Below, piece after piece: positions 18,194 through 58,791 of a stretch of DNA of 64,000 nt. The notes below the pieces were generated by a model. That model searched no databases, was not told the DNA's origin, and worked only from the letters and a program-made list of their open reading frames with translations. Position 1 is the first letter of the stretch. Each line of letters starts with the position of its first letter. The stretch is from assembly GCA_052034805.1 (NCBI GenBank), contig JBPOID010000005.1:50984-114983 (forward strand). Direction: 5' to 3'. The DNA is from Candidatus Tayloriibacteriota bacterium. GTDB taxonomy: Bacteria > Patescibacteriota > Minisyncoccia > Phycocordibacterales > PALSA-1337. The translations under genes were made by a program, and so were the position numbers.

Positions 18194-19279
18194 ATGAACC
18201 TAAAACTGATGAGGCCAAGTCTCGATGCTATCACCGTGATAGACAAAGACGGTAAACCCCAAGAAAGATTGGTTTTCCGGGGTGTTATCGATGCAAGTAC
18301 GATTGATTCCATCAAAACAGCTGAATACCAGAGGGAAATTCTCTCTGGAGTAAAGGCTAGCTCACTTACTGTGGCGGCCAAGAATTCTACCCTGCCGGAT
18401 ATTGAGCTCGGTATGCGCGGAGACAGATATCAAACAAGGATAGATAAAGACAGGAATGAAGAATTCTTTATCTTACTTGATGATATCTATGTCATCGACG
18501 GCCTACAGAGAATCAACGCTATCAGAACAGTGATGGCGAGTAAGCCTGAGAATCTTCCGAGGATCGGGGCAATGATTCACACTGATACCGATTTTGATTG
18601 GGAGCGAGAGAGATTTCGTACACTCAATCAAGAAAGATCAAGACTTTCACCAAGCATTCTGCTTAGGAACGCAAGAAAAGATCATCCCGGTCTCGAATTG
18701 CTCTATAACCTGAGCACGACCGACTCCAGCTTTATCTTGAATGGTAAAGTGTCATGGGAACAAAGGCAAAAGAAAACTGAGCTCATACCAGCAATGCGCT
18801 TTTGTCGAACCGTGAGTTATCTGCATTCAAGGTTTATCCCTGGTGGTAGATCAGATGATGTTAGAGAACTCATACCATCTCTTGATAAAAAAAGAGATCT
18901 GGTTGGTCCTAATATCATGAGAGATAATATCAAAGCATTCTTTGACCTCATCGATGAATGCTGGAATATCAGACACATTGTCTACAGAGAGCAACAACCT
19001 CAGATCAAGGCGACATTCCTTGAAGTGGTTGCCGACTTTTTGACGAGACATGAGATTTTCTGGAGTGACAAGCGACTGTTCGTGAAAGCTGATCACAAGA
19101 AAAAGCTTTCGAAATTCGCCATAACCGATCCAGAGGTATCCAGACTCTGCGGTTCTGGTGGACAAGCAAGAAATATTCTGTTCCAAATGCTGATTGAACA
19201 CTTTAACAGTGGCAAAAGGCATGGAAGAATCGGAGTAGAACACACGAATGGAAACAGCGAGGAGAATGGGCATGAATAG
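18194..19279 (+). CDS. DGQHR/DndB-like (ParB-Srx nuclease superfamily, DUF262-like) protein; GC-richer foreign-looking gene
   Basis: YVIDGLQRINAI matches the DG(Q)xR box of the DndB / DUF262 / ParB N-terminal domain. Length is 361 aa. An RBS aaagagg precedes the ATG. GC is about 45% by eye. Confidence 0.5.
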   Translation: MNLKLMRPSLDAITVIDKDGKPQERLVFRGVIDASTIDSIKTAEYQREILSGVKASSLTVAAKNSTLPDIELGMRGDRYQTRIDKDRNEEFFILLDDIYVIDGLQRINAIRTVMASKPENLPRIGAMIHTDTDFDWERERFRTLNQERSRLSPSILLRNARKDHPGLELLYNLSTTDSSFILNGKVSWEQRQKKTELIPAMRFCRTVSYLHSRFIPGGRSDDVRELIPSLDKKRDLVGPNIMRDNIKAFFDLIDECWNIRHIVYREQQPQIKATFLEVVADFLTRHEIFWSDKRLFVKADHKKKLSKFAITDPEVSRLCGSGGQARNILFQMLIEHFNSGKRHGRIGVEHTNGNSEENGHE

Positions 19280-20287: not shown

Positions 20288-21220
20288 CTAGAATTGCTTT
20301 GGCAGGAATCCAGATGCAGCACCATAGCCCGCAGAAACACTATAAACATTACTAGCATCAAAAGATAGCATCCCATTCTCTTCATCGAATTCAAAGCAGG
20401 GCGACCTAGAGAAGTTGCCTTCCTCATCAGAGAACCATTCGTCGCCTGCACAATCAATCCACAAATCATCGTAATCTTGAATACGATCAGGATGTGTGAG
20501 AAGCATCGAACCTACAGCGAATACACCAAGGCCGAATTCATATTCCATATCTTCCATGATGACTCTCGAACGATTGGTAGAACGACCACGATGACGAAGG
20601 CCGAACTGAGCAGGAATGATGAGAATATTAGCATCACCTTGTGTTCTAGCTATCTCATTCCAGAATTGCTCGGAACGACTAGACTGACGCAAATACTTAT
20701 CATTCATTTCATCAGCAAGTGACCTGTAGTTACGTATACTCTTGATAGTAGAGATGATTCTCTTTACCGCCTCACAATAGGTAGAACCGAAAACTTCAGG
20801 ATTCTTCTTCCAGTTAGGAATAGCGAACCAACCTTCTGCAAATCTTGGTAGTCCAGCCGAACGAATACTATTAGTATTGACGAGTATTGTCCGACTGCTT
20901 ACAAAGATCTCTGGAAACAATCCACATAGAAGACTTATCTGATGAGATAAATCCAGAAGTTTGTAACCCGATGGATAACCAGATATGGATTCAATCTCTT
21001 GTTCAGCATACTCATCTACATTTTCAAACTTAGCAATCTGACGAGCAACAAGTGACTGAATGGACGTCACGAATTCAGGATTACCTTTGACGCGTTCCGC
21101 ACTCTTCTCGTTCAAAGCATCAAGTGCATTTTGCACAGGATCAGAATCTGCAACATCACTGATCATACGGATAAGTTGCTTCCTTTGATCATCACTTATC
21201 CCTTCTTGAGTAAGTGCCAT
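20288..21220 (-). CDS. hypothetical cytoplasmic protein, GC-richer (foreign-looking)
   Basis: 310 aa ORF with clean coding statistics and no motif I recognise. It lies between miaA and tRNA-Trp. Confidence 0.5.
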   Translation of the reverse strand: MALTQEGISDDQRKQLIRMISDVADSDPVQNALDALNEKSAERVKGNPEFVTSIQSLVARQIAKFENVDEYAEQEIESISGYPSGYKLLDLSHQISLLCGLFPEIFVSSRTILVNTNSIRSAGLPRFAEGWFAIPNWKKNPEVFGSTYCEAVKRIISTIKSIRNYRSLADEMNDKYLRQSSRSEQFWNEIARTQGDANILIIPAQFGLRHRGRSTNRSRVIMEDMEYEFGLGVFAVGSMLLTHPDRIQDYDDLWIDCAGDEWFSDEEGNFSRSPCFEFDEENGMLSFDASNVYSVSAGYGAASGFLPKQF

Positions 21221-21773: not shown

Positions 21774-22829
21774 CTAGCCTTTGCCACCATCGGACGGACC
21801 AGTATAAAGTTTTCCGGGCTTTTGAAAATCAACCCAGTCAAACTTTACACGATATGTTCCATCTGCTGGAAACACAACAGTATATTCACTGTTAAATTTA
21901 CCAGCACCGGTCCAAGGTCCACCGACCTGACTGAAACTAAGAGCAAAAGGATGTTCAATATTAACTTCGGCGCCATCCTGAACTAAACCACTAATGTCAA
22001 ACCTGATGACTTGACCTTTGGTAACTGTGATCAGGACCGTGGGTTTATTGTAAACTTCCACGATTTTCACCAGCGCTACATCCTTCGGTGAAAGTTCGAA
22101 AACATAGTGACCTTCGATCTTCCAAGATCCATTTCTCTCATTGGTGGCGCCAGGGGTATTACCCTTAGCATCCCAAAGATTATAGGTCATAACATTTCCA
22201 TCAGTGAATCTGATAGAGAGAATACCATTAGGTACACCCGCCATCCAAGTATCAAACAAGACTCTATTATTATTCACTGACACGCTCTCTTTCCGAACAG
22301 TGTTACCATCATCGCCGATAACAAGGATTTCGGCTGATTGAACCTGATCCCCAATCGCAACTCTTTGAATCCAGATATTGTACTGAGGAGGTCCATACTT
22401 TCCGATCTCTGAAACGAGATAGGAAGCGTAGCCGTAGAAAACAAGGTTATTGTCCTTGTCGTAAAGCCACACATGACCCTCGATTTTGTCGAGAGGATTT
22501 GCGACTTTGTACTTGAACTCAACAGCGAAAAGCTGATTGAGTACATCTTCTGCTCCGTTACCAGTCTTACTGGCATAGATGACAGAATTGTCATCATAAA
22601 CCATACTCGATGAAGATACCGACCTCGCCCCACGGACAACTTGTCCGAGAGCATAATTCCTGATCGTATCTTTGGACTGAATCGGCATGTCTACCGCCAG
22701 AGCTTTCGTGCTGAAACTGAAACCGATCACCATCATCAAGATAGCAACGATACTACGAATCATGATTTTCATTGTCTTTGTTTCCTTCTTTGGTTTTTCC
22801 TGTGTTTTGTTTTTTGTTGATACTAACAC
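21774..22829 (-). CDS. secreted hypothetical protein (signal peptide, beta-rich), GC-richer
   Basis: Basic N-terminus plus a hydrophobic segment, then a long domain with no motif I recognise. A terminator-like compound hairpin lies at about 21690..21730. Confidence 0.5.
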   Translation of the reverse strand: MLVSTKNKTQEKPKKETKTMKIMIRSIVAILMMVIGFSFSTKALAVDMPIQSKDTIRNYALGQVVRGARSVSSSSMVYDDNSVIYASKTGNGAEDVLNQLFAVEFKYKVANPLDKIEGHVWLYDKDNNLVFYGYASYLVSEIGKYGPPQYNIWIQRVAIGDQVQSAEILVIGDDGNTVRKESVSVNNNRVLFDTWMAGVPNGILSIRFTDGNVMTYNLWDAKGNTPGATNERNGSWKIEGHYVFELSPKDVALVKIVEVYNKPTVLITVTKGQVIRFDISGLVQDGAEVNIEHPFALSFSQVGGPWTGAGKFNSEYTVVFPADGTYRVKFDWVDFQKPGKLYTGPSDGGKG

Positions 22830-32510: not shown

Positions 32511-32584
32511 GGCGTAGTGGCGAAGTTGGTCAACGCGACAGTCTGCAAAACTGTTATGCGCCGGTTCGATCCCGGCCTACGCCT
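32511..32584 (+). tRNA. tRNA-Cys (anticodon GCA)
   Basis: Acceptor ggcgtag/ctacgcc, anticodon stem acagt/actgt with loop CTGCAAA, and T-loop TTCGATC. Confidence 0.8.
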
Positions 32585-32663
32585 CAAAATAAAGATAATA
32601 ATTCAATAGATTTTACATTTTCTATATATACGTGATAACATGATATAAATAAGAAATATTAAT

Positions 32664-32747
32664 GCCCGGGTGGCGTAATTGGTAGCCGCAGTAGACTTAA
32701 AATCTGCCGACCGTAAGGTCATGTGGGTTCGATTCCCACCCCGGGCA
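32664..32747 (+). tRNA. tRNA-Leu (anticodon TAA)
   Basis: Acceptor gcccggg/cccgggc, anticodon loop CTTAAAA, a long variable arm, and T-loop TTCGATT. Confidence 0.8.
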
Positions 32748-32815
32748 CATTTGATTAGTGTTATATAGAATACCTAACATCCCCCCAACAATCCAAAAGA
32801 TGTTAGAATATAGGC

Positions 32816-33535
32816 ATGTATAGAATAGTACATGGTTTCAGAATAACTAAAAAAAGAAAACATAAGAAAATATTAGGTACACTTTTATTATTATTTATAA
32901 TACTAATATCCAGTATAATATTCTTCTCATCAGGCGATTCTGCAAATATATTATTATCTAATCTATTACTATCATTATTTAGACTTGTTATAGCTTATTT
33001 TATATCTCTAACTTTAGCTATATTGATAGCCATACCGGTAAGCAATACTAGATTTGGAGATTTTATGATACCTGTTTTTGATCTATTACAGAATCTTCCT
33101 TCATTCGCATTAATTCCTATTTTTATATCTTGGCTTGGATATACAAATATTATGACAATAGTATTCGCCGCCACCTCCATCCTTTGGCCAATATTATTTT
33201 ATATATTACATGCCTTAAAGACAGCATCGAAGGATCAAGAAAATGCAGCGAGAATATTCGGTGCAAAAGGTATAAAGAAAGTATTATTTTTTTCTTTACC
33301 TGTATCCTTCCCTGCTATCATCACAGGTTCAATAGTCGGTTTCAGTATTGGCTGGGAAGCTATAATAGGAGTTGAGATTATAGGATTAACGAATGGCATA
33401 GGTTCATTTATAAATAATCCATCACATAATAACAATCTAGTGCTAGGTATATCTGCTTTACTTGTCATAGTATTTCTAATAAACAGATTGGTATGGATGC
33501 CATTATTAAAGAAATCACAATTATATGCAGAATAA
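32816..33535 (+). CDS. ABC transporter permease (SsuC/TauC-like BPD inner membrane component)
   Basis: 6-TM permease with an EAA-like loop; overlaps the downstream ATPase gene. Confidence 0.7.
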   Translation: MYRIVHGFRITKKRKHKKILGTLLLLFIILISSIIFFSSGDSANILLSNLLLSLFRLVIAYFISLTLAILIAIPVSNTRFGDFMIPVFDLLQNLPSFALIPIFISWLGYTNIMTIVFAATSILWPILFYILHALKTASKDQENAARIFGAKGIKKVLFFSLPVSFPAIITGSIVGFSIGWEAIIGVEIIGLTNGIGSFINNPSHNNNLVLGISALLVIVFLINRLVWMPLLKKSQLYAE

Positions 33536-34259
33536 AAATATAGCCGAAATAAAAGATCTTTCTTATTCATATATAAATGAAGAGACTAATGAACATATAA
33601 ATGTAATAAAGGATATATCTTTCCATATAAAAAGTGGAGAATTCTTGTCTATAGTTGGACCATCAGGTTGTGGCAAATCTACATTATTAGAAATAATTGC
33701 AGGATTAATAAAAGCAAAGCATGGAAATATAATTTTGAATACAGATAGAATATCATTTGTATTCCAGAATTTTGCCTTATTCCCTTGGCTTACTGTTAGA
33801 GAAAATATTGAATTTGGTTTAAAGATGAAAAATATTCCAAAAGCAGAGAGAAAAAAGATATCAGAAGAAAAAATAGAAGAAATCGGTTTAAAAGGTTTTG
33901 AAAATAAATATCCAATAGAATTATCAGGAGGAATGAAACAAAGAGTAGGTATTGCAAGAGCATTAGCTATAAATCCAGAATTATTACTTATGGATGAGCC
34001 CTTCTCAAGTCTCGATGTAATCACAGCAGAAAAATTGAGAGCAGAATTACTTGAAATATGGAAAAAATACAAAATGACAATTGTTATGGTTACACATCTA
34101 GTAGATGAGGCGGTAGAATTATCTGATAGAGTATTGATATTCGGTAAAAGACCTACATATATAAAGGAAACTATAACAATAGATTCTGTTAAACCTAGAG
34201 ACAAAAGATCTCATGAGTATTACAAGATAATAGACGATATAACAAATAAAATAGAATAA
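33525..34259 (+). CDS. ABC transporter ATP-binding protein (SsuB/TauB-like)
   Basis: Walker A GPSGCGKST, signature LSGGMKQR, and Walker B LLLMDEP. Confidence 0.85.
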   Translation: MQNKNIAEIKDLSYSYINEETNEHINVIKDISFHIKSGEFLSIVGPSGCGKSTLLEIIAGLIKAKHGNIILNTDRISFVFQNFALFPWLTVRENIEFGLKMKNIPKAERKKISEEKIEEIGLKGFENKYPIELSGGMKQRVGIARALAINPELLLMDEPFSSLDVITAEKLRAELLEIWKKYKMTIVMVTHLVDEAVELSDRVLIFGKRPTYIKETITIDSVKPRDKRSHEYYKIIDDITNKIE

Positions 34260-34367
34260 AGAAGGTGAATAAATGATCACACTTTAAAACTAAATTAAAA
34301 AGTATATACGCCCATAGTCGTCATTGCTAATTATCATTATTTCTGTTATATTTTTTCATGTATCTTT

Positions 34368-34440
34368 GTTTGTAAATGTAATAATGTAAATATGCGCCCA
34401 TAGCTGTTTTGGTAGTTAAAGACAGGATGAGGTGATATGA
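34368..34440 (+). repeat. first unit of a 73 bp tandem duplication carrying the tRNA-Lys upstream region plus a decayed copy of the tRNA 5' half
   Basis: gtttgtaaatgtaataatgtaaatatgcgcccatagct occurs at 34368 and again at 34441. The first copy continues as gttttggtagttaaagacagg, a degenerate version of the D-arm cagttggtagagcagatccc. Confidence 0.75.
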
Positions 34441-34466
34441 GTTTGTAAATGTAATAATGTAAATAT

Positions 34467-34539
34467 GCGCCCATAGCTCAGTTGGTAGAGCAGATCCCTC
34501 TTAAGGATAAGGTCGTAGGTTCGACCCCTACTGGGCGCA
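34467..34539 (+). tRNA. tRNA-Lys (anticodon CTT)
   Basis: Acceptor gcgccca/tgggcgc, D-arm TAGCTCAGTTGGTAGAGC, anticodon loop CTCTTAA, and T-loop TTCGACC. Confidence 0.85.
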
Positions 34540-34594
34540 CAAGTTTCAATAAAATTGAAACGAATATATAATATAATTCAGTTATATATTATAT

Positions 34595-34675
34595 GCCGAG
34601 GTGGCGAAATTGGCAGACGCACTTGCCTTAGGAGCAAGCGGGGTGACCCATGGAGGTTCAAGTCCTCTCCTCGGC
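34595..34675 (+). tRNA. tRNA-Leu (anticodon TAG)
   Basis: Acceptor gccgagg/cctcggc, anticodon loop CTTAGGA, a long variable arm, and T-loop TTCAAGT. Confidence 0.8.
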
Positions 34676-34819
34676 ACAATCTGATATAAAACCCATATAA
34701 ATACCCATTGACAAAAGGGTTATTTGATGTATAATTATATAAGAACAGGCATTTAAACCGAAGCTAAAGCTTAGGTTGAAAGTTGAAATAACAATCAAAA
34801 TAAGGGGAAAGAAAAGTTT

Positions 34820-35989
34820 ATGATTCGATCATGGATGGCTGAAGATGGGAGAACGATCTGGGCGGAAGCTCCGGATAAATACCCTCAATGGATGGTTGGT
34901 GTGGCCAAAATTGGGTTTCTAAATTACCTGAATCCCTTCGGAGAAAGGGTTATGTCAGAGAAAGAAGAGCTGAAGCCCGTCTCCAAGGGAGACAAGGACG
35001 GCGAAGACAATATCGCCAAAGCCGGTAACGTTTGGTACAAGCTCGAGGTCAGCAAGAAACTAGCCCTTAAGAAGGGTAAAAAATATATGGTAGAAATCAT
35101 GCCATATGAGATGCCCCCCGTCCCTGGACCAGGAACTACATCACCCACTCCAGTCCCAACAAAAGACTTGTACAGAGTGGACCTCTCGAGGGTGAACAAG
35201 GGAAAGAAAGGGTTTTGGCTTTTTCTATTCATTCTTGCAACCATCATTGTACTCGGAACAATCGGCTACAAGACCTTTCAGTGGTATAAAAACCACAAAA
35301 AAGAATCCGTGCCGATCATGGGTACAAACAGTGTAGGAAATGGCGTAGAACAATTGATCCAGAAAAACCTGGAAATGTCGGGAAAGATTGAGGAGTTGGA
35401 GAAGAAATTGGAAGAGCAAAGGAAGAAAAGCTCTACCAACTCATCGACTTCTTCTATTTATCCCACCCCACCGACGAATTCGACACCAACGAATCTGCCC
35501 ACGAGTGTTTCCCTCACCCACACTACAAATCAAATTGTAGTGACCAATATCAGTCAGGAAAGAGAAAGTCGGGAAAGGATTGATTCTGGCGGGCAAGTTG
35601 TTGTAGTGAACGGAGGTGGAAATAAATTCACCTTCCATAACTATAACGGTAGAAGTAACGGGGACACATACAACACATCACCAAAAGTGATGTGGCCGGA
35701 CGATAGCAGGCCAAATCGTCACTACCCTATTATGGGCGAAAAGGTGGATTTGCCACCTGGTGAAGATTACTGCTATTGTTACCCTACTACTGGAAAGTGG
35801 AGGGTGGACGTATATACTGATGCGGAATCAGTGAAAAGTGCCTACAATGTAGGCACCGAGCAAGAACCTAAATGGGTTCTAACGCGGGATTTCAATCCCA
35901 CTCAAACAGCAGTTGGGCTCAGACTCAAAAATCTGAGTCAAACAAAGATAAGTGTCACATTTGTTCTTACAAGGAAAGCAGGTCCTTGA
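34820..35989 (+). CDS. single-pass membrane protein with a coiled-coil and a Pro/Thr-rich linker (unknown function), GC-rich
   Basis: Central TM segment (FWLFLFILATIIVLGTIGY), then an EELEKKLEEQRKK coiled region and a low-complexity TPPTNSTPTN linker; about 48% GC by eye. Confidence 0.5.
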   Translation: MIRSWMAEDGRTIWAEAPDKYPQWMVGVAKIGFLNYLNPFGERVMSEKEELKPVSKGDKDGEDNIAKAGNVWYKLEVSKKLALKKGKKYMVEIMPYEMPPVPGPGTTSPTPVPTKDLYRVDLSRVNKGKKGFWLFLFILATIIVLGTIGYKTFQWYKNHKKESVPIMGTNSVGNGVEQLIQKNLEMSGKIEELEKKLEEQRKKSSTNSSTSSIYPTPPTNSTPTNLPTSVSLTHTTNQIVVTNISQERESRERIDSGGQVVVVNGGGNKFTFHNYNGRSNGDTYNTSPKVMWPDDSRPNRHYPIMGEKVDLPPGEDYCYCYPTTGKWRVDVYTDAESVKSAYNVGTEQEPKWVLTRDFNPTQTAVGLRLKNLSQTKISVTFVLTRKAGP

Positions 35990-36049: not shown

Positions 36050-36201
36050 CTCCAAGCATTAAAAACGCCATTTTAGCTAATAATTTAAGGATATAAATGA
36101 TATTGACTTTATGTCTTATTTATGTTAATATAATAAGAGAAACAAAGAGATCGGTGTTAATAAACAAAAACACTTTTGACAACAAAAAACAGGAGACAAA
36201 A

Positions 36202-37161
36202 ATGAAAATGGTAGAAGAAAATAAGGTACCGAATGGACCGATGGTCCTCGGTATCACAGTGTTTCTGGCTATAATAAGCCTGACACTATTTGTAACAGGG
36301 GTACTCATAGAGATTCCTATGGAATTCTCTATCCCCCTTTCACTAGCCCTTGCAAGTAGCATCTTTTACAAAAAAGTGCTCGGCAATTTCCTAGTCATCG
36401 TACCGGAAAACAAAGCATGGATCATATCCAATGCTTTCAAAGACGAAGAAGTTTCTGAAAATAGTCTCACAGAGACTGGCTATAGAAATATCAAGGCTCA
36501 GAGAGAACTTCAAGCGGGAATACATTTCATATACCCTTGGGAAAGTAAAGCTGAGGAAATCGATATGAAATGGTTCAATTCCATCGGTTCCAAAGAAGAA
36601 GATGGTGGAAACTCTTACACTCTCAAGAACGGACGCACTGTAAAAATTGCGTGGCAAGTCAGAGTAGTACCACTTCCAGGGTTCTTGGTCAACTTCAATC
36701 GAAGCGACAAGAAAGACATCGAGAGAAAGGTAAGAGCTCGAGCCGAAGCCTTCTTCCAAGGATATATCGGTAATCTAGAACTTGTTCAATTTGGAAATGA
36801 ACAAAAGAAAGACATCGAAAAAGCCTTCGAAAATCTATGGGGTGGAGAATCTACTAAAGACGATCAAGAAAAAGAGCTTGGAGTCTGGACTGGTACACCC
36901 GAAGTATTTGATATCAGCAATCCTAAAGATGTTGAGATTCAAATGAACTGGGAAGCCATAATGTTGTCTACCACAACAATTGCAAAGAGAATGGTAGAGG
37001 AATCTGGAAACAAGATGTCCTTCCAAGATGCTATGAGATTGGCTCTAATAGGCCAAGGCAAAGCAAAAATGGAAATGGTGGATGTTGTGGGCCTCCTCGG
37101 AGGAGGAGGTAAAAAAGATCAACAGCAACAACAAAGACAGCCTAAAAAAGGAGGTAAGTGA
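36202..37161 (+). CDS. SPFH/Band-7 (stomatin/HflK-like) domain membrane protein
   Basis: Start moved to the ATG preceded by aggaga (MKMVEEN...). N-terminal TM, then IVPENKAWIISNAF...AGIHFIYPW...RVVPLPGFLVNF, resembling the SPFH core, and a C-terminal coiled/Gly-Gln-rich tail. Confidence 0.45.
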   Translation: MKMVEENKVPNGPMVLGITVFLAIISLTLFVTGVLIEIPMEFSIPLSLALASSIFYKKVLGNFLVIVPENKAWIISNAFKDEEVSENSLTETGYRNIKAQRELQAGIHFIYPWESKAEEIDMKWFNSIGSKEEDGGNSYTLKNGRTVKIAWQVRVVPLPGFLVNFNRSDKKDIERKVRARAEAFFQGYIGNLELVQFGNEQKKDIEKAFENLWGGESTKDDQEKELGVWTGTPEVFDISNPKDVEIQMNWEAIMLSTTTIAKRMVEESGNKMSFQDAMRLALIGQGKAKMEMVDVVGLLGGGGKKDQQQQQRQPKKGGK

Positions 37162-52027: not shown

Positions 52028-53113
52028 TTGAATAAAATGTTAAAAGAAGCCTCAGTTTTAATGGAAAAGCTCTTAAATGAGACAAAAAATCCACCAATTA
52101 TAGGGGATTTGGTAGAAGGACCAGTTATAAATATAGAGAAAAGTGCTGTATATGTAGACTTGGCACCATTCGGTACAGGTATTATATATGGTAGAGAGTT
52201 CATAACAGCTCGCGATATTATAAAGAAAATAAATATCGGAGACGTTATAGCAGCCAAGGTTGTAGATACAAATAATAAAGAAGGTTATATAGAACTTTCT
52301 CTAAAGGAAGCTAGACAAGCTCTAATCTGGAGTGAAGCCGAAGAAGCGATAAAGAATAAGACAATATTAGAATTACCTATAATAGAAGCCAATAAAGGTG
52401 GTCTTATAATACAATGGCAAGGCATAGCAGGATTCCTACCAGCTTCTCAATTAAAAACAGAACATTATCCTAGAGTTACAGATGGAGATAAGGATAAAAT
52501 ATTAGAAGAATTAAAGAAATTAGTAGGACAACATATATCTGTTTCTATTATTTCTGTATTACCAAAGGAAGGAAAACTAATATTCTCAGAAAAGAGTCCT
52601 GAACAAAAAGATAAAGAGAAAACAATAGCAAAATACAAAGTAGATGATGAAGTTACAGGAACAGTAACAGGTATAGTAGATTTCGGAATATTCGTAAAGA
52701 TAGAAGAAGGCCTAGAAGGACTAGTACATATATCAGAAATAGATTGGTCTCTAGTAGATGATCCACGTGCATTATTCAAAGTTGGTCAAAAAGTAAAGGT
52801 AAAGATAATAGAAATAAAAGAAGGAAAAATATCTCTATCTATAAAAGCTTTGAAAGAAAATCCTTGGACAGAAGCATCAAAGAAATACAAGAAAGATATG
52901 CAAGTAAAGGGTGTAGTTATAAAATTCAATAAACACGGTGCATTGGCTTCAATAGAAGAAGGCATAGCAGGATTAGTTCATATATCAGAATTCGGTGGAG
53001 AAGAAAAACTACGCAAAACACTAGAACTTGGCAAGAGTTATGATTTCAAAATTACATTATTTGATGTAAAGGAGCAAAAGATGGCATTATCTTTTGTAGG
53101 TGAGAAGAAATAA
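52028..53113 (+). CDS. rpsA: 30S ribosomal protein S1 (four S1 domains)
   Basis: Repeated S1 OB-fold units (GDLVEGPV, GDVIAAKV, GTVTGIVDFGIFV, GVVIKFNKHGALA). Confidence 0.8.
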   Translation: MNKMLKEASVLMEKLLNETKNPPIIGDLVEGPVINIEKSAVYVDLAPFGTGIIYGREFITARDIIKKINIGDVIAAKVVDTNNKEGYIELSLKEARQALIWSEAEEAIKNKTILELPIIEANKGGLIIQWQGIAGFLPASQLKTEHYPRVTDGDKDKILEELKKLVGQHISVSIISVLPKEGKLIFSEKSPEQKDKEKTIAKYKVDDEVTGTVTGIVDFGIFVKIEEGLEGLVHISEIDWSLVDDPRALFKVGQKVKVKIIEIKEGKISLSIKALKENPWTEASKKYKKDMQVKGVVIKFNKHGALASIEEGIAGLVHISEFGGEEKLRKTLELGKSYDFKITLFDVKEQKMALSFVGEKK

Positions 53114-53153
53114 AAAAAGAGAATTTTAAAAGACTGTAAGTGAAAGTAACAGC

Positions 53154-53738
53154 TTATGAAGCATTATATATGCTCATTGCCTTTTCTCTTCCCTCTTTAA
53201 CTATTACTTCTATAGACTCTTTAACGATTTTGGAGATTTTCTTTATTATCTTCATTTCATCGTCTTTATATTTTCCTAAAATAAATTTCTCTATTTTATC
53301 CTCACCATGAGGAACTTTTGCATTGCCTTTTGCATTCTCAGGGGCTACACCTATTCTTATACGTATAAAGGCTTCTGTTTTTATTGATTTTATAATTGAT
53401 TCTAAACCATTATGTCCTCCGGAGCTTCTATTATATGAAATTCTTATCTTTCCTAATGGCAAATTGAAATCATCGTATATTACTATCAATTTTTCTGCTG
53501 ATTTTATATTCTTTACTATTTGAGAAATAGATTTACCAGAATTATTCATAAAAGTTTCTGGTTCTATTAGTTTTATTTTCTCTTTTCCTATTTTTAATTC
53601 AGATATTCTAGCATTTATTTTTTTATCAAAAGAAAATTCATCATCTGTTAATGATTCTAATACTATTCTTCCAGTATTGTGACGAGTATTCACATATTCT
53701 TCACCTGGATTTCCTAAACCTGCTATTATATATGGCAT
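53154..53738 (-). CDS. pth: peptidyl-tRNA hydrolase
   Basis: MPYIIAGLGNPGEEYVNTRHNTG N-terminus. Confidence 0.9.
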   Translation of the reverse strand: MPYIIAGLGNPGEEYVNTRHNTGRIVLESLTDDEFSFDKKINARISELKIGKEKIKLIEPETFMNNSGKSISQIVKNIKSAEKLIVIYDDFNLPLGKIRISYNRSSGGHNGLESIIKSIKTEAFIRIRIGVAPENAKGNAKVPHGEDKIEKFILGKYKDDEMKIIKKISKIVKESIEVIVKEGREKAMSIYNAS

Positions 53739-53797: not shown

Positions 53798-54418
53798 TTG
53801 TGTCAAACGATTAATCATAATACAATTGGCATAATGGACCCTGAAATTTTACCTAAAACAAAAAAAGAAAATTATTTTAAAGAATTTTTTAAAATCGCAA
53901 TCATTGCGATTGTGATAGTGATTCCATTCAGAATGTTTATCGCTGAACCATTCATGGTAAATGGTGAATCCATGGATCCAACATTTGATTCTGGACATTA
54001 TCTCATAGTAGATAGAATCACATATCGTTTCAAAGCCCCAGAAAGATTGGATATAATAGTATTCGATTATCCAAAAGAAGCTGTGAAATACACCGAGAAT
54101 ACAAATATATATCTCATAAAACGTATAATAGGCTTACCAGGAGAAACATTAAATATAAAGGATGGCAAAGTCACAGTAATAAACAAAGAACATCCAGAAG
54201 GAATAATCATCCCTGATAATTTCGTCATAGATTCACATAGAACCAATGAAAATCTAGATATAACTCTAGGTCCAACAGAATATTATGTTATGGGTGATAA
54301 TAGAGCGAATAGTCTTGATTCTAGAAAATGGGGACCTTTGGAAGAAAAATATATAGTAGGTAGACCGATACTGCGCCTACTACCCTTTTCCAAAATAGGC
54401 ATTTTACCAGGAAAATAA
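53798..54418 (+). CDS. lepB: signal peptidase I
   Basis: GESMDPT (box B), GDNRANSLDSRKWG (box E), and an N-terminal TM. Confidence 0.85.
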   Translation: MCQTINHNTIGIMDPEILPKTKKENYFKEFFKIAIIAIVIVIPFRMFIAEPFMVNGESMDPTFDSGHYLIVDRITYRFKAPERLDIIVFDYPKEAVKYTENTNIYLIKRIIGLPGETLNIKDGKVTVINKEHPEGIIIPDNFVIDSHRTNENLDITLGPTEYYVMGDNRANSLDSRKWGPLEEKYIVGRPILRLLPFSKIGILPGK

Positions 54419-54438: not shown

Positions 54439-55677
54439 ATGGCAAAAAAAATAAAGAGTGACGGAAAGAGTGAAGCAAAATATATAAATCACAAAAACCT
54501 AGACAGAATAGGTGAAATAGCTGTGTATTATGGATTCACTTCCAAAGAAAGTCCAACAATAAACAAAAATGATATAAATCAAGCAAAAAGTTTATTAGAT
54601 AGTGATTATATAAATAGCGAAGATGATAGCAAGGATCATCTTGCATTACATGTAGAAGAGAAAATCGCCATACTTCGAATGTATCAAGAAGAAAATCTAT
54701 CTTCACAACCACAACCAGTAACTCTATATTTCAAAGAACCCTTTAATGGATCATTAAAAAAGAATGATGACTATAATAGATATTGTGATTTAGAAATAAT
54801 AGGAAATTCTAAAGGTATATCAGAAGCAATCTTAATACAAACAGCGAGAATGATGCTAAAAGAAGAAGGTTATGAGAATGTATGCGTAGAGATAAACAGC
54901 GTAGGTGATAAAGAATCAATGAATAAGTTTACCAAGGAACTTATTAATTACTATAGAAAACATATAGACAGTATGCATGTAGAATGTAGACAATTATTCA
55001 AGAAAGATCCTTTCGAACTCCTACATTGTGAAAATGAAAAATGTAAAAAGATAAATGAAAATGCTCCACATATAATGAATTATCTCGGAGAATCTAGTAG
55101 AAATCATTTCCAAGAAGTATTGGAATACCTCGAGGCATTGGATATACCATACAAAATAAATCATAATCTAATAGGAAATAGAAAATACTGTACAGAAACT
55201 GTATTTGCAATAATAAATCTAGATCATGATAAGAAAAGTAAAGATCATAAAATATTAGCTATGGGTATAAGATATGATGGATTGTCAAAGAAATTAGGAA
55301 TGAAAAAAGAAATTCAAGGAGTCGGAATATCTATACTTATAAAAGGAAGTAAAGCTGAATTAAGAAAAGAAATAAAGAAAACAAAAAGACCTTTTGCTTC
55401 ATTTGTACAATTAGGTTTTGAATCAAAATTACTTTCATTATCTGTTGTAGAAAGTCTCCGAAAAGTCAAAATACCTTTATATTTATCATTAGCAAAGGAT
55501 AGATTAGGAGCTCAAGTCTCTATGGTTGAGAAAAATCATATACCGTATTCTATAATAATGGGTAAAAAAGAAGCCATAGAAAAATCAGTAATAGTTAGAA
55601 ATCTAAATACTCATGCCCAAGACACGGTATCTCTAGATGATTTGCCAAAATATATGAAAAAATTGGAGCCAAAATAG
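54439..55677 (+). CDS. histidyl-tRNA synthetase-like protein with degenerate class II motifs 1 and 2 but retained motif 3 and anticodon-binding domain
   Basis: GIRYDGL aligns with the HisRS motif 3 GGRYDGL. The C-terminal alpha/beta anticodon-binding-like domain is present. The motif 2 region reads LYFKEPFNGSLKKNDDYNRYCD where FRYERPQxGRxRQF is expected. Confidence 0.55.
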   Translation: MAKKIKSDGKSEAKYINHKNLDRIGEIAVYYGFTSKESPTINKNDINQAKSLLDSDYINSEDDSKDHLALHVEEKIAILRMYQEENLSSQPQPVTLYFKEPFNGSLKKNDDYNRYCDLEIIGNSKGISEAILIQTARMMLKEEGYENVCVEINSVGDKESMNKFTKELINYYRKHIDSMHVECRQLFKKDPFELLHCENEKCKKINENAPHIMNYLGESSRNHFQEVLEYLEALDIPYKINHNLIGNRKYCTETVFAIINLDHDKKSKDHKILAMGIRYDGLSKKLGMKKEIQGVGISILIKGSKAELRKEIKKTKRPFASFVQLGFESKLLSLSVVESLRKVKIPLYLSLAKDRLGAQVSMVEKNHIPYSIIMGKKEAIEKSVIVRNLNTHAQDTVSLDDLPKYMKKLEPK

Positions 55678-55720
55678 AAGAGCTTGCTCATATAGACCTT
55701 TTGTGATAATATCCTCCCAT

Positions 55721-55966
55721 ATGATAAATGTAGAAGTTACAAAACACGGCACAGAAAATAGCTTGGGTGTGCTTCGTCGTTTTACAAAGAAAGTCCAAGG
55801 ATCAGGTGTGCTACCTCGCGTTAGAAGCAAGAGATACAATGAACGCTCTCTATCTTCATACAAAACAAAGATGAAGACATTGAAATCTATAAAGAGAAAA
55901 GCAGAAATACAAGAACTTATAAAAATGGGTAAAATGCCAGAAAAGACATCTCGTTTTTCAAGATAA
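55721..55966 (+). CDS. rpsU: 30S ribosomal protein S21
   Basis: MINVEVTKHGTENSLGVLRRFTKKVQGSGVL matches the S21 N-terminal pattern. The ORF track starts at an upstream GTG; I chose the ATG. Confidence 0.8.
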   Translation: MINVEVTKHGTENSLGVLRRFTKKVQGSGVLPRVRSKRYNERSLSSYKTKMKTLKSIKRKAEIQELIKMGKMPEKTSRFSR

Positions 55967-55995: not shown

Positions 55996-56331
55996 ATGCA
56001 TCAAATAGAATCTATTAAAAATGAAATTCTAGGAAAAGATTATGATCTTTCCTTTTCTTTCATTACTCCAAAAGAAATTCAGAGACTAAATAAGCAATAT
56101 AGAAACATAGACAAGCCAACAGATATACTTTCTTTCCCATTAAGTGATAAAGAAGGAGAAATTTTTATTTGTAAAAGTGAAGCAAGGAAAGAATCAAAAA
56201 AATTTGATAGAGATTATGAAAATTTTCTAAATTTTCTACTTATACACGGCATGGTGCATTTGAAAGGATTCGATCATAGTAGTACAATGGAGAGTATAGA
56301 ATCAAAATTCAGAAAGAAATTTGGTGTCTAA
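55996..56331 (+). CDS. ybeY: rRNA maturation endoribonuclease YbeY
   Basis: TDILSFP and HGMVHLKGFDH metal-binding motifs. Confidence 0.8.
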   Translation: MHQIESIKNEILGKDYDLSFSFITPKEIQRLNKQYRNIDKPTDILSFPLSDKEGEIFICKSEARKESKKFDRDYENFLNFLLIHGMVHLKGFDHSSTMESIESKFRKKFGV

Positions 56332-56343
56332 ATCTTTCTCCAC

Positions 56344-57528
56344 ATGTCGCGTTCAACAATAACTGGTATTGATATTGGAACATACCACGTAAAGGTGGTT
56401 ATTACTCATGGAACAGAAGTAAATGAAAAAGGATTTCCGAAAATACTCGGAACAGGTATAGCAGATTCTAGAGGATTGAGACATGGATATATAGTAAATC
56501 CAAATGATATATCACAAAGTATAAAAAAGGCATTAAGTGATGCAGAAAAAAGAGCAGGAATAAAAGTCAAAAAAGCTTTTGTATCAATAGGTGGTATAGG
56601 ATTGGGTAGTGTAGTATCTAGTAGTTCAATAATAATATCAAAAGCAGATCTAGAAATAACAAATCTAGATATAAAGAAAATACAAGAACAATGCGAGAAA
56701 GATATTCCATCTGGACTTATTTTGAATAAAAAAATAATAAATAGCATTCCCCTTCAATACAAAATAGATGGAAAAGTAATACTAGGAAAGCCAGAAGGCA
56801 TGAAAGGCAGTAAATTCGAAATAAAGACTTTGTATATAACATGCCTAGAACATCATCTAAATGACATTATTCAGTCCGTAGAAGAAGCTGGAGTGAGTGT
56901 AGAGGATGTAGTGGCCTCACCTATCGCTGCAAGCCTTATAACCCTCACCAAGGCACAGAAAATAGCAGGATGCGTACTTGCAAATATCGGTGCCGAAACT
57001 GTATCAATAGCTGTATTTGAGAATAATATGCCAGTATCCCTAGAAATATTCCCCATAGGTTCTACAGATATTACAAATGATATTGCTTTAGGATTAAAAG
57101 TTCCACTAGAAGAAGCCGAGCAGATTAAAATAGGTGCAATAACAGGTAGTTCATATCCTAGGAAAAAGCTAGAGGAAATAATATTCGCTAGACTTTCTGA
57201 TATTTTTGAATTGATAGAATCTCATTTAAAGAAAATAGGTAGAAATGGATTATTACCTGCTGGAATAGTTATAACAGGTGGAGGATCAGGACTTTCTAAT
57301 ATAGAAGAAATGGCAAAGGCTTATCTTAGACTGCCTTCACGTATTGGCTTTATAAATATAGGTAATGGAGAAAAACAGAATTTCAGAGATTCTACATGGG
57401 CTGTGGCTTATGGATTATGTATCCTAGGCACTCATTCTGATGAAGAAGAAGTAATAAATACCAATAGTCAATTCTTGGTAAAAATATGGAAAGGTATAGT
57501 TTCTTGGTTAAAACAATTTCTACCATAA
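56344..57528 (+). CDS. ftsA: cell division protein FtsA
   Basis: Actin-like ATPase (ITGIDIGTYHVKVV) located upstream of ftsZ. Confidence 0.85.
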   Translation: MSRSTITGIDIGTYHVKVVITHGTEVNEKGFPKILGTGIADSRGLRHGYIVNPNDISQSIKKALSDAEKRAGIKVKKAFVSIGGIGLGSVVSSSSIIISKADLEITNLDIKKIQEQCEKDIPSGLILNKKIINSIPLQYKIDGKVILGKPEGMKGSKFEIKTLYITCLEHHLNDIIQSVEEAGVSVEDVVASPIAASLITLTKAQKIAGCVLANIGAETVSIAVFENNMPVSLEIFPIGSTDITNDIALGLKVPLEEAEQIKIGAITGSSYPRKKLEEIIFARLSDIFELIESHLKKIGRNGLLPAGIVITGGGSGLSNIEEMAKAYLRLPSRIGFINIGNGEKQNFRDSTWAVAYGLCILGTHSDEEEVINTNSQFLVKIWKGIVSWLKQFLP

Positions 57529-57606
57529 TTTAAAGAAAACTAGAAGTTGCACGCTAAAATGAGGGTGGTATGATGTAGATACTATCCCTTTTTTAATACA
57601 CTATTC

Positions 57607-58791
57607 ATGCCAAACATAACACCAGATATAGAAGCATTCGCTAGAATAAAAGTTATCGGAGTTGGAGGTTCAGGAAAGAACGCTGTGAATCATATGATCA
57701 ATTCCAAAGTAAAAGGTGTTGATTTTATCGCGGTAAACACTGATGCTCAAGACTTGCATCATTCATTAGCAAAAAAGCGTATTCATATAGGGAAAAATCT
57801 AACAAGAGGTCTGGGTACAGGCATGAATCCAGAAATGGGTAAAAGAGCAGTAGAAGAAAGCAAAGAAGAAGTACAAGAAGCTATAAAGGGTGCGGATATG
57901 GTATTTGTGGCTGGAGGATTGGGCGGAGGCACATGTAGTGGAGCAAGTCCTGTTATAGCGAGAACAGCCAAGGAACTCGGTGCTCTTACAGTAGCTGTTG
58001 TAACTAGACCATTTTTCTTCGAAGGACAACAAAGATCAAAAATAGCAGAATCAGCATTAGAAGATTTAAGAAAAGAAGTTGACGCTATTATAGTTATACC
58101 TAATGATAGACTTCTATCTACAATAGACAAAAACACTACAGTAAAGAATGCTTTCGCAATATGTGATGAAATATTACGCCAAGCAGTAGAAGGCATATCT
58201 GATCTTATAACAACTCCTGGAATCATAAATATAGACTTTGCAGATATAAGAACTGTTATGGAAAATGCTGGTTCAGCTCTCATGGGTATAGGTTCAGCAT
58301 CAGGAGAAAATCGTGCAATAGAGGCAGCAAAGCTCGCTATAAACTCCCCATTATTAGATATATCTATACATGGAGCAAAAGGAGTTCTATTCTCAATAGC
58401 TGGTGGTGAAGATCTAACAATGTTCGAAATACAAGACGCAGCGAAAGTTATTACAGAATCCATAGATCCTCAAGCAAAAGTTATATTCGGTACAGTTAGA
58501 GATGATAAGCTAAAGAAAAATGAAGTAAAAGTAACCGTTATAGCTGCGGGTTTCCTAGGTAATACAAAAGAAGGCGTTACAAAAGAATCACCAAATACAA
58601 AGATAGAAAATATATCAATACAAGCAGATATTACAGCAAAAGAAGAAAAGAAAGGTAAAATCTTTAATAACATATCAACACCAATAAAAGAGAAAGTATT
58701 GGTTGAAGAAAAGAAAGAAATCAAAAATAGTGATGATGACGATGATTGGGGTGCGGTACCGGCTTTCTTGAGGAGATCAAAATTGAAATAA
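57607..58791 (+). CDS. ftsZ: cell division GTPase FtsZ
   Basis: GVGGSGKNAVNHM, tubulin signature GGGTCSGASPVIA, and an acidic C-terminal tail. Confidence 0.95.
   Translation: MPNITPDIEAFARIKVIGVGGSGKNAVNHMINSKVKGVDFIAVNTDAQDLHHSLAKKRIHIGKNLTRGLGTGMNPEMGKRAVEESKEEVQEAIKGADMVFVAGGLGGGTCSGASPVIARTAKELGALTVAVVTRPFFFEGQQRSKIAESALEDLRKEVDAIIVIPNDRLLSTIDKNTTVKNAFAICDEILRQAVEGISDLITTPGIINIDFADIRTVMENAGSALMGIGSASGENRAIEAAKLAINSPLLDISIHGAKGVLFSIAGGEDLTMFEIQDAAKVITESIDPQAKVIFGTVRDDKLKKNEVKVTVIAAGFLGNTKEGVTKESPNTKIENISIQADITAKEEKKGKIFNNISTPIKEKVLVEEKKEIKNSDDDDDWGAVPAFLRRSKLK

Follow-up and report, generated by a model that had tools for sequence, protein, structure and literature searches.

The HisRS-like domain of Gcn2/GCN2 is a pseudoenzyme that senses uncharged tRNA. 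It keeps the HisB box, a GGRYD-type motif, and the anticodon-binding domain (ABD), and its motif 2 is partly conserved, while the HisA arginine and the tandem tyrosines of histidyl-tRNA synthetase (HisRS) are lost (PMC11363354). The unit belongs to a eukaryotic kinase with several domains, and anticodon specificity has been lost from its ABD. HisZ (TIGR00443) is a bacterial, HisRS-derived protein that likewise lacks aminoacylation activity; by family definition it has a catalytic-like domain and works with HisG. In CPR bacteria, archaeal TyrRS and TrpRS were gained laterally (Mukai et al. 2017, PMC5370408), a precedent for the exchange of a native synthetase against one of foreign origin.

Here we analysed a 64 kb stretch of DNA (hereafter, the window) encoding a HisRS-like protein with extensive losses in its catalytic motifs. 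As in Gcn2, catalytic-like and anticodon-binding-like domains form a full unit, a HisB box is kept, the HisA arginine and the tandem tyrosines are lost, and adenylate-forming residues are missing. The likeness to the non-catalytic unit of Gcn2 would be functional only, the two having independent origins. Unlike Gcn2, the window protein is stand-alone, bacterial and derived from CPR HisRS, carries no kinase, CTD or effector domain, and keeps the canonical ABD signatures. It also differs from HisZ, in that its most conserved part is the ABD. In the published CPR cases the native gene was replaced, whereas here it persists in place, conserved and apparently non-catalytic. The literature that we searched contained no description of this degenerate family.

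A HisRS-like gene in the slot downstream of lepB

The degenerate gene runs from an ATG start to a TAG stop within a conserved gene block.

52028–53738: S1-domain protein (+ strand) and pth, peptidyl-tRNA hydrolase (− strand); conserved upstream block (domain searches)
53798–54418, + strand: lepB, signal peptidase I (TIGR02227, 134 bits)
54439–55677, + strand: degenerate gene for a HisRS-like protein of 412 aa; positional hisS ortholog (open reading frame, HisRS homology, slot common to canonical hisS)
55703–55966, + strand: divergent small ORF resembling bS21; GTG start at 55703 or ATG start at 55721 (weak PDB matches)
55996–58791, + strand: ybeY, ftsA and ftsZ; conserved downstream block (domain searches)

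The preliminary description had presented this gene as a full-length HisRS relative of 412 residues, flanked by lepB and rpsU. The open reading frame is real: the alignment to the HisRS structure 1qe0 spans the whole protein (E=2.8e-31), and the top Foldseek matches are all full-length HisRS. The resemblance to HisRS is far beyond chance. The score for TIGR00442 (hisS, class IIa), 166.7 bits where the cutoff is 286.75, identifies the protein as a HisRS homolog but, unlike bacterial HisRS equivalogs, not as an equivalog, and Pfam tRNA-synt_His gave just 28.5 bits. The AF2 model is of moderate confidence (pLDDT 65.5), with values of ~30 at residues 1–30. Both flanks also proved correct in outline. 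The stop codon of lepB, the conserved upstream neighbour of canonical and degenerate genes alike, lies 20 nt before the start of the degenerate gene. The downstream ORF is divergent and matched no Pfam or NCBIfam model; its 24 weak PDB matches were all bS21. No terminator-like site was found on the + strand before 57563, and promoter and terminator scans of the sequence gave background levels. The Rfam scan returned tRNAs only, and neither the 64 kb window nor any fetched locus contained a tRNA-His gene.

Canonical HisRS of the CPR/Paceibacteria type (for example, P0190 and P0323) has the same fold and domain order, comprising core, helical insertion domain and HGTP anticodon-binding domain, and shares 36–40% overall identity with the degenerate protein. 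Its gene likewise occupies the slot that follows lepB, and that of P0323 shares the block Lactamase_B/S1/Pth/LepB/[HisRS]/S21/YbeY/FtsA/FtsZ with the window. We scanned species-representative genomes with a DNA pattern matching both kinds of gene, which misses ~12% of canonical genes in a coverage test; after this test it had replaced an earlier pattern, based on FxQLGFExKL, that missed the canonical gene of locus L002. Of the 120 matches, 34 were degenerate and 86 canonical. LepB was adjacent in 25/25 evaluable degenerate loci and in 70/71 evaluable canonical loci. In a metagenome scan with the canonical alignment as query, the same adjacency was observed in all 62 evaluable loci among the best 80 matches, so that in these two independent scans 132 of 133 evaluable canonical CPR-type hisS genes immediately follow lepB. 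The sole canonical match outside the slot (L017) is not CPR; it lies on a contig of 59% GC in a bin labelled Dehalococcoidia. The degenerate gene is thus the positional ortholog of hisS.

A second HisRS-like ORF was found neither in the window nor in the ~5 kb past its right edge (which encodes TsaD and others), and the 34 degenerate-bearing loci of 8 kb likewise contained no second HisRS. No fetched locus carried a degenerate and a canonical gene together, and no assembly had two pattern matches among the 120. Had the degenerate-bearing genomes kept a relocated CPR-type hisS, ~30 such genes would have been expected in the genome-collection scan; none was seen. Comparison of the degenerate list with two canonical protein lists gave no sign of a common contig among the matches listed, a result that is uninformative alone. 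All of these scans covered HisRS types that carry CPR-type motifs. One candidate for a second HisRS type, P0246, is simply the usual HisRS found in Terrybacteria and other Parcubacteria.

In a neighbour-joining tree, all 31 degenerate tips fell into one group with no canonical sequence inside, and this group was placed within CPR HisRS. The identities of neighbouring proteins also set the degenerate-bearing and canonical-bearing genomes apart. The degenerate genes therefore form a single clade in Paceibacteria (Patescibacteria/CPR), including metagenome-assembled genomes labelled Taylorbacteria. The family comprises >1600 protein clusters with an intact ORF and >400 clusters at 50% identity; at least 120 clusters share 67–88% identity. 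The degenerate proteins (HisX) have a median identity of 57% to their counterpart in the window; the corresponding medians are 61% (YbeY), 64% (Pth) and 50.5% (LepB). The gene evolves about as slowly as its housekeeping neighbours, which reveals purifying selection. A scan of viral contigs for misfiled CPR contigs returned no relatives.

Catalytic motifs and predicted tRNA-binding domains

Within the gene, the following segments were delimited, all on the + strand.

54439–54498, + strand: N-terminal tail, residues 1–20, Lys-rich, variable and of low confidence (alignments; pLDDT)
54520–54564, + strand: motif 1 region, AVYYGFTSKESPTIN, with YYGF and the motif 1 proline kept
54640–54678, + strand: LALHVEEKIAILR, remnant of LxxRPEGTAxxxR, the histidine-pocket helix (alignment)
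54718–54804, + strand: degenerate motif 2, residues 94–122 (structure and consensus alignments)
54910–55146, + strand: helical insertion domain, ~residues 158–236, including INSxGD...YYRKH (consensus alignment, conservation)
54976–55044, + strand: invariant H180, C183, C197 and C202 cluster, canonical CxxC...C....C (alignments)
55168–55194, + strand: HisA remnant LIGNRKYCT, canonical LVRGLDYYT (alignment)
55258–55284, + strand: HisB box AMGIRYDGL, canonical GGGRYDxL (alignment)
55318–55350, + strand: motif 3 remnant GVGISILIKGS, canonical GxGxxIGVDRV, class II GxGxxxGxER (alignment)
55399–55674, + strand: anticodon-binding domain, residues 321–412 (PF03129, consensus alignment, conservation)

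The degenerate protein and canonical CPR HisRS have the signatures YYGF, INSxGD...YYRKH, RYD and GxKEA in common. Absent from the degenerate protein are the N-terminal GMRD box, RPEGT, the motif 2 arginine and glutamate together with seven residues of the motif 2 loop, the HisA arginine and the motif 3 arginine. At the N-terminus, the Lys-rich tail occupies the place of canonical PKGMRD, and the alignments bear out the absence of the N-terminal box, (P)KGMRD in canonical CPR HisRS, that had been claimed. The preliminary description had further called both motifs 1 and 2 degenerate. For motif 1 this does not hold clearly: Y30, Y31, G32, F33, S38 and P39 do not vary among family members and also occur in the canonical AxYYGFrPIETPILE, with YYGF and P39 both kept. 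For motif 2 it does, as the HisRS alignments place LYFKEPFNGSLKKNDDYNRYCD where the arginine-rich box would be. In the histidine-pocket helix, the glutamate is retained and the arginine, proline, glycine and threonine are substituted, so that RPEGT reads HVEEK.

The losses in motif 2 can be followed residue by residue. R112, E114, R115, R120 and R122 of TtHisRS align with N103, S105, L106, D111 and N113 of the window protein. In TtHisRS, E114 is reported to be essential, R115 and R122 bind G-1, and R120 reads C74 (PMC4357726). The loop that reads G-1, C74 and A76 is deleted or substituted in the window protein, being seven residues shorter than its canonical CPR counterpart. Where the motif 2 arginine would stand, the clade itself is variable (N, K, R, P or S). 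Most members carry a lysine there (FKGS), so that residual nucleotide binding may persist in the family; the window protein has an asparagine.

In the HisA box, the catalytic arginine is replaced by glycine and the second tyrosine by cysteine. The HisB box, MGIRYDGL, keeps R278, Y279 and D280 and has lost two of its three glycines; R278 reaches 98% conservation in the divergent clade. The segment GIRYDGL had been taken for motif 3, but the alignment assigns it to this HisRS-specific box (GGGRYDGL). In motif 3 proper, the invariant arginine is lost, with a glycine or a gap in its place. The histidine-pocket residues E73, E119, Y250 and R278-Y279-D280 are retained. The catalytic lesions are present in the window protein, in at least 120 close relatives and in almost every one of 150 divergent representatives; they also occur in genes from long or complete contigs. 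Judged by alignment, the active site is more degenerate than had been described. All residue classes for adenylate formation and acceptor-end recognition are substituted or deleted, so aminoacylation is unlikely, as already proposed.

Conservation in the family differs by domain, being highest in the ABD and the insertion domain and lowest in the former active site. The insertion domain shows 47% consensus identity to canonical CPR HisRS and a mean conservation of 0.54 among 136 divergent members. It contains the H180/C183/C197/C202 cluster, which is probably a retained metal site. The ABD, matched by HGTP_anticodon (PF03129) at residues 334–408 (E=7.5e-11), is the best conserved region, with 49% consensus identity and a mean conservation of 0.60 among the same number of divergent members. 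Its signatures FxQLGxExKLxSL, LR, D, Q, GxKEA, VR and Q are common to canonical CPR HisRS. The retention of an ABD, unlike in HisZ, was thus correctly recognized from the outset, and the non-catalytic, tRNA-binding role proposed on that basis would fit this pattern. The conservation of the ABD and the insertion domain is at most suggestive of binding of uncharged tRNA.

Alternative explanations for the degenerate gene

The protein could be the only HisRS-family member encoded in its genome, charging tRNA-His through a radically remodelled site, possibly with a partner, or His-tRNA-His could be made by another route. The degenerate gene does sit in the hisS slot, it is conserved as strongly as its housekeeping neighbours, and it keeps the pocket residues listed above. 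No other HisRS-like gene was present in any sequence examined, which amounts to less than ~10% of any one genome, and relocated CPR-type copies are missing where about thirty were expected. Against this, the motif 2, motif 3 and HisA arginines are all gone, the motif 2 loop is deleted, and clade members differ at the lost positions. Conservation is lowest in the former active site, the opposite of what is expected of a working enzyme. We know of no class II synthetase that functions when these arginines are missing. We therefore consider this explanation unlikely. The broader proposition that a major Paceibacteria clade lives without any conventional HisRS, relying on a rebuilt active site, perhaps aided by a partner, or on some other route, appears a shade less likely again; no less than a quarter of HisRS-type matches among species-representative genomes come from the degenerate clade. 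The preliminary description had favoured an extra paralog, with canonical CPR-type hisS elsewhere in the genome. Duplication followed by catalytic loss is the usual origin of proteins resembling aminoacyl-tRNA synthetases, such as HisZ, and a relocated copy might have escaped, since the DNA pattern misses some canonical genes, the motif could have been lost from such a copy clade-wide, and the metagenome scan consisted of its best 80 matches. However, the degenerate gene holds the hisS slot itself and never stands beside a canonical CPR-type copy in the loci examined. The near-invariant slot of the canonical gene, the lack of any assembly with two matches and the absence of a common contig among the matches listed also argue against a paralog, which we regard as still more doubtful.

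A regulatory subunit of ATP phosphoribosyltransferase in histidine biosynthesis, similar to HisZ, would also be a HisRS homolog without catalysis, and the protein does match TIGR00443 weakly. Yet this score, 34.9 bits, is negligible against the cutoff of 271.65 and lies far below the hisS score; HisZ is further contradicted by the ABD and by the placement of the family inside CPR HisRS. Neither hisG nor any other histidine-biosynthesis gene was detected among the ~50 window ORFs scanned, and amino-acid biosynthesis is generally missing in CPR bacteria. We rejected this reading as very improbable. Pseudogene decay or faulty annotation could explain the loss of catalytic motifs and the split ORFs seen at a few loci (L020, L032, L066 and L113). 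The number of clusters with intact ORFs, the many close relatives, and a conservation that equals that of the neighbours and is structured by domain effectively refute it.

A proposed repurposing of hisS and its significance

We favour a reading in which the hisS ortholog has become a non-catalytic tRNA-His-binding protein, with true HisRS activity supplied by another gene that is not of the CPR type; we assign it a probability of roughly 60%. The native CPR-type HisRS of this clade would have lost its aminoacylation chemistry through substitution or deletion of the motif 2 arginine and glutamate, the loop reading the acceptor end, the HisA and motif 3 arginines and the N-terminal GMRD. Other parts remain under purifying selection, namely the fold of HisRS, motif 1 and the HisB box, together with the ABD and the insertion domain that clamps the acceptor stem. 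The product would most likely be a dimeric pseudo-synthetase, predicted to bind tRNA-His through its ABD without charging it, with the insertion domain perhaps contacting the acceptor-stem backbone. It could act as a tRNA-His sensor, as a sequestering factor or as a hand-off factor. Charging would fall to a different and probably foreign HisRS elsewhere in the genome, which we infer purely, because the scans were restricted to CPR-type motifs. The route may have been xenologous displacement followed by repurposing of the native gene.

These observations bear on how CPR genomes are read. JGI annotates the degenerate proteins as "histidyl-tRNA synthetase", whereas PGAP gives a domain name only. 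Under the former label a dead enzyme may be counted as HisRS, and metabolic reconstructions and completeness estimates from single-copy markers may be affected for many CPR genomes. If the clade truly had no recognisable HisRS, this would seriously challenge what is known of class II synthetases. If, on the other hand, a foreign HisRS displaced the native one clade-wide, this would add to the known synthetase transfers into CPR. A native synthetase gene has apparently been kept in place, under selection, after catalytic loss. With an ABD that still looks specific for tRNA-His, its product would parallel the HisRS-like tRNA sensor of Gcn2, but as a stand-alone bacterial protein.

Domain architecture and catalytic motifs

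The HisRS-like gene and its small downstream neighbor lie at:

54439-55677 (+), ORF with an ATG start and a TAG stop, encoding the 412-aa HisRS-like protein
54976-55044, segment of this ORF encoding residues 180–202, a putative metal site
55703-55966, small ORF with weak PDB matches to ribosomal protein bS21

The HisRS-like ORF reads as the preliminary description had placed it and starts 20 nt beyond the upstream gene's stop codon. Its product is a true full-length HisRS homolog, since it can be aligned over its whole length with solved HisRS structures (best, S. aureus 1qe0, E=2.8e-31) and since the top PDB matches of its AlphaFold model, which is of moderate confidence (pLDDT 65.5, pTM 0.60), are all full-length HisRS. 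The anticodon-binding-like C-terminal domain described earlier is present as a Pfam HGTP anticodon-binding domain (ABD; residues 334–408, E=7.5e-11). The Pfam tRNA-synt_His match is weak (28.5 bits), the full-length match to the NCBIfam hisS equivalog reaches 166.7 bits, far short of the cutoff of 286.75, and the NCBIfam HisZ models reach at most 35 bits.

The motif 2 arginine box and the N-terminal GMRD-type box, both previously reported as absent, are indeed gone in our alignments. The assignment of GIRYDGL to motif 3 was mistaken, as this is the HisRS-specific HisB box (GGGRYDGL); class II motif 3 (GxGxxxGxER) aligns with GVGISILIKG, in which the invariant arginine is gone, and the true degeneracy exceeds that described. 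We compared the consensus of 120 members of the degenerate family with that of 120 canonical CPR HisRS sequences. The degenerate family lacks the N-terminal PKGMRD box, has HVEEK in place of RPEGT, and has a motif 2 loop shortened by 7 residues (FRHENPQRGRLRE versus FKGS.KK); its HisA reads LIGN[RK]KYCT instead of LVRGLDYYT, and its motif 3 is without the Arg. In an alignment with TtHisRS, the enzyme of a solved tRNA-His complex, R112, E114, R115, R120 and R122 are replaced by N103, S105, L106, D111 and N113 in the window protein; R112 is the class II motif 2 arginine. In TtHisRS, E114 contacts A76 and is reported to be absolutely essential for aminoacylation, R115 and R122 bind G-1, and R120 reads C74 (PMC4357726).

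Retained features comprise YYGF, the motif 1 proline, E73 (the Glu of RPEGT), E119 (the Glu at the end of motif 2), Y250, and R278-Y279-D280 of HisB. Six cysteines are conserved in canonical CPR HisRS, lying within the insertion domain and beyond it (CxxC...C....C followed by a second CxxC). In the degenerate family the second CxxC is lost and H180, C183, C197 and C202 are invariant; judged from this pattern, these four residues may form a retained Zn site.

The hisS slot

The canonical HisRS P0323 is encoded on a 583 kb contig within a block reading Lactamase_B / S1 / Pth / LepB / HisRS / 82-aa ORF / YbeY / FtsA / FtsZ. The window carries an identical block in which the degenerate gene takes the place of HisRS. 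The small ORF that follows has diverged too far for a Pfam or NCBIfam S21 match, and all 24 of its weak PDB matches (E 0.014–1.1) are to bS21.

Using a DNA pattern for a motif common to both kinds of gene ([IV]NS[IVL]GD-x13-[YHF]Y[RK]K[HN]), we scanned one genome per species across 185,579 species. At the protein level the pattern covers 116/120 degenerate and 106/120 canonical sequences; it gave one match per test gene and zero chance matches in the window. The scan returned at least 120 loci, and the matches listed come from 120 different assemblies, 86 of them canonical and 34 degenerate. Among these 120, LepB lies directly upstream in 70 of the 71 evaluable canonical loci and in all 25 evaluable degenerate ones. 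An independent scan of a metagenome collection, with a canonical alignment as query and the peptide patterns AxYYGF[RK]PI and [LIM]KKPK[VI][YC]F, found LepB adjacent in 62/62 evaluable matches among the best 80. No fetched locus of the genome scan contained both kinds. The degenerate gene is thus the gene of the hisS slot, a positional ortholog, and the earlier term "paralog" is not supported.

The sole out-of-slot canonical match among the 120 listed, L017 (CAZEDC010000137.1), belongs to a contig of 59% GC in a bin labelled Dehalococcoidia; it carries the motif as INSxGD-x13-YYRKH and does not adjoin lepB. Within the fetched loci (L004–L123), the S21-YbeY-FtsA-FtsZ block comes immediately after the HisRS-type gene in 26/32 degenerate versus 13/69 canonical loci, and the downstream neighborhood differs in most canonical-bearing Paceibacteria. 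The gene is truncated, or broken into two neighboring ORFs, in two canonical (L020, L032) and two degenerate loci (L066, L113), which may reflect frameshifts, assembly errors or real pseudogenisation. Dozens of these MAGs are titled "uncultured Candidatus Saccharibacteria" and show Pth-LepB-HisRS in the Paceibacteria-type order, with proteins of that type; these seem to be Patescibacteria under a generic or mistaken title.

Family origin and selection

A search of the protein database at E<1e-5 gave 1622 relatives, the best 120 clusters of which are 67–88% identical and come from Patescibacteria/Paceibacteria MAGs; JGI names these "histidyl-tRNA synthetase", and their PGAP label is just the name of a domain. 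Among 1.84 billion cluster representatives searched exhaustively with HMMER, 441 clusters at the 50% identity level match at E<1e-30. Among the best 150, which are 33–62% identical, RPEGT occurs in 2, GRxR[EQ]F in 2 and RGxDYY in 4. The few catalytic-looking entries (P0190, P0226, P0246) are canonical CPR HisRS. Two further entries, P0232 and P0235, are intermediates with partial degeneracy. In P0235, GMTD, FHRH, EFRQFGIE and GGRFD remain, and RPEGT is gone along with the Arg of HisA and that of motif 3; P0232 has no motif 2 left and retains RGLDFY and GGRYD. These two sequences suggest a stepwise decay of the catalytic motifs. Because a distinctive C-terminal half (FIQLGFEAKLKSL...GQKEA...VIVR) is common to canonical CPR HisRS and the degenerate family, the latter derives from the CPR enzyme itself.

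In a neighbor-joining tree, 31 full-length degenerate genes from the genome scan and the window protein form one group with zero canonical members, a grouping that long-branch attraction could inflate. The branches of this group are longer (root-to-tip 0.84 versus 0.67), and its sister is P0232. Neighboring genes independently agree with a single clade: identity to the window is at most 65% for FtsZ and 71% for S1 in canonical-bearing genomes, and at least 66% and 70%, respectively, in degenerate-bearing ones. Across the latter, median identity to the window is 57% for the HisRS-like protein, 61% for YbeY, 57% for S21, 64% for Pth, 50.5% for LepB, 67.5% for FtsA and 73.5% for FtsZ. The degenerate protein evolves like an ordinary housekeeping protein, which rules out a pseudogene.

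Consensus identity to canonical CPR HisRS peaks in the insertion domain (47%) and the ABD (49%) and falls to its lowest, 21–29%, in the N-terminal and RPEGT regions. Mean conservation among 136 divergent members of the degenerate clade is 0.60 in the ABD and 0.54 in the insertion domain, against 0.33–0.39 in the former active-site segments. Near-invariant ABD residues, the same as in canonical CPR HisRS, are Q324, G326, K330, L340-R341, D354, Q359, G375/K377/E378, R387 and Q394. HisRS uses its C-terminal domain to read the GUG anticodon and its insertion domain as a clamp on the acceptor stem (PMC4357726); it is thus the modules in contact with tRNA, and not the catalytic center, that are under selection.

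Proposed role and the source of His-tRNA-His

The sequence pattern makes a non-catalytic, tRNA-binding role likely. The protein would no longer activate histidine or charge tRNA, would still bind tRNA-His through its ABD and possibly its insertion domain, and is probably still a dimer, as motif 1 is retained. Its role would be to sense, sequester or hand off tRNA-His. The operon context (lepB-X-S21-ybeY-ftsA, with no terminator-like site before 57563 in a site scan) says little about a new role, because it was inherited from hisS.

Since cells need His-tRNA-His, another HisRS, of a type invisible to CPR-specific patterns, would be encoded elsewhere in the genome. Had degenerate-bearing genomes kept a relocated CPR-type hisS that matches the pattern at the usual rate, ~30 out-of-slot canonical matches would be expected among the 120 listed loci, and at most one was seen. 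A phmmer search found no second HisRS-like ORF in the 64-kb window, and ~5 kb beyond its right edge added nothing. That the degenerate gene is the sole HisRS homolog in these genomes is unlikely. The low conservation of the former active site speaks against a working enzyme. Lateral synthetase replacement has precedent in CPR, with archaeal-type TyrRS and TrpRS (PMC5370408). The ORFs scanned in the window include no HisG or HisZ partner, and the window has no tRNA-His gene. It also contains:

10638-11903 (-), normal seryl-tRNA synthetase (Seryl_tRNA_N and class II core)
18194-19279, 20288-21220, 21774-22829, 34820-35989 and 36097-37161, five ORFs of 310–389 aa without a Pfam match at E<=1e-4, as is typical of CPR "dark" proteins
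32511-34677, region with an ABC transporter permease/ATPase pair, tRNA-Cys and tRNA-Leu(taa) upstream of the pair and tRNA-Lys and tRNA-Leu(tag) downstream of it

The normal seryl-tRNA synthetase implies that degeneration is specific to the HisRS gene and not general for the synthetases of this genome.

The closest functional analogue of the proposed tRNA-binding protein is the HisRS-like pseudoenzyme of Gcn2, in which HisB and an anticodon-binding-like domain are likewise kept and, as in the degenerate family, the Arg of HisA and the tandem Tyr are missing (PMC11363354). Targeted full-text literature searches turned up no account of HisRS anomalies in CPR or of a non-catalytic bacterial HisRS homolog that stands alone and bears an ABD, and the curated libraries Pfam and NCBIfam hold no model for the family. 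The degenerate family would belong among the synthetase-derived pseudoenzymes, where it is unusual in being a positional ortholog instead of a duplicate.
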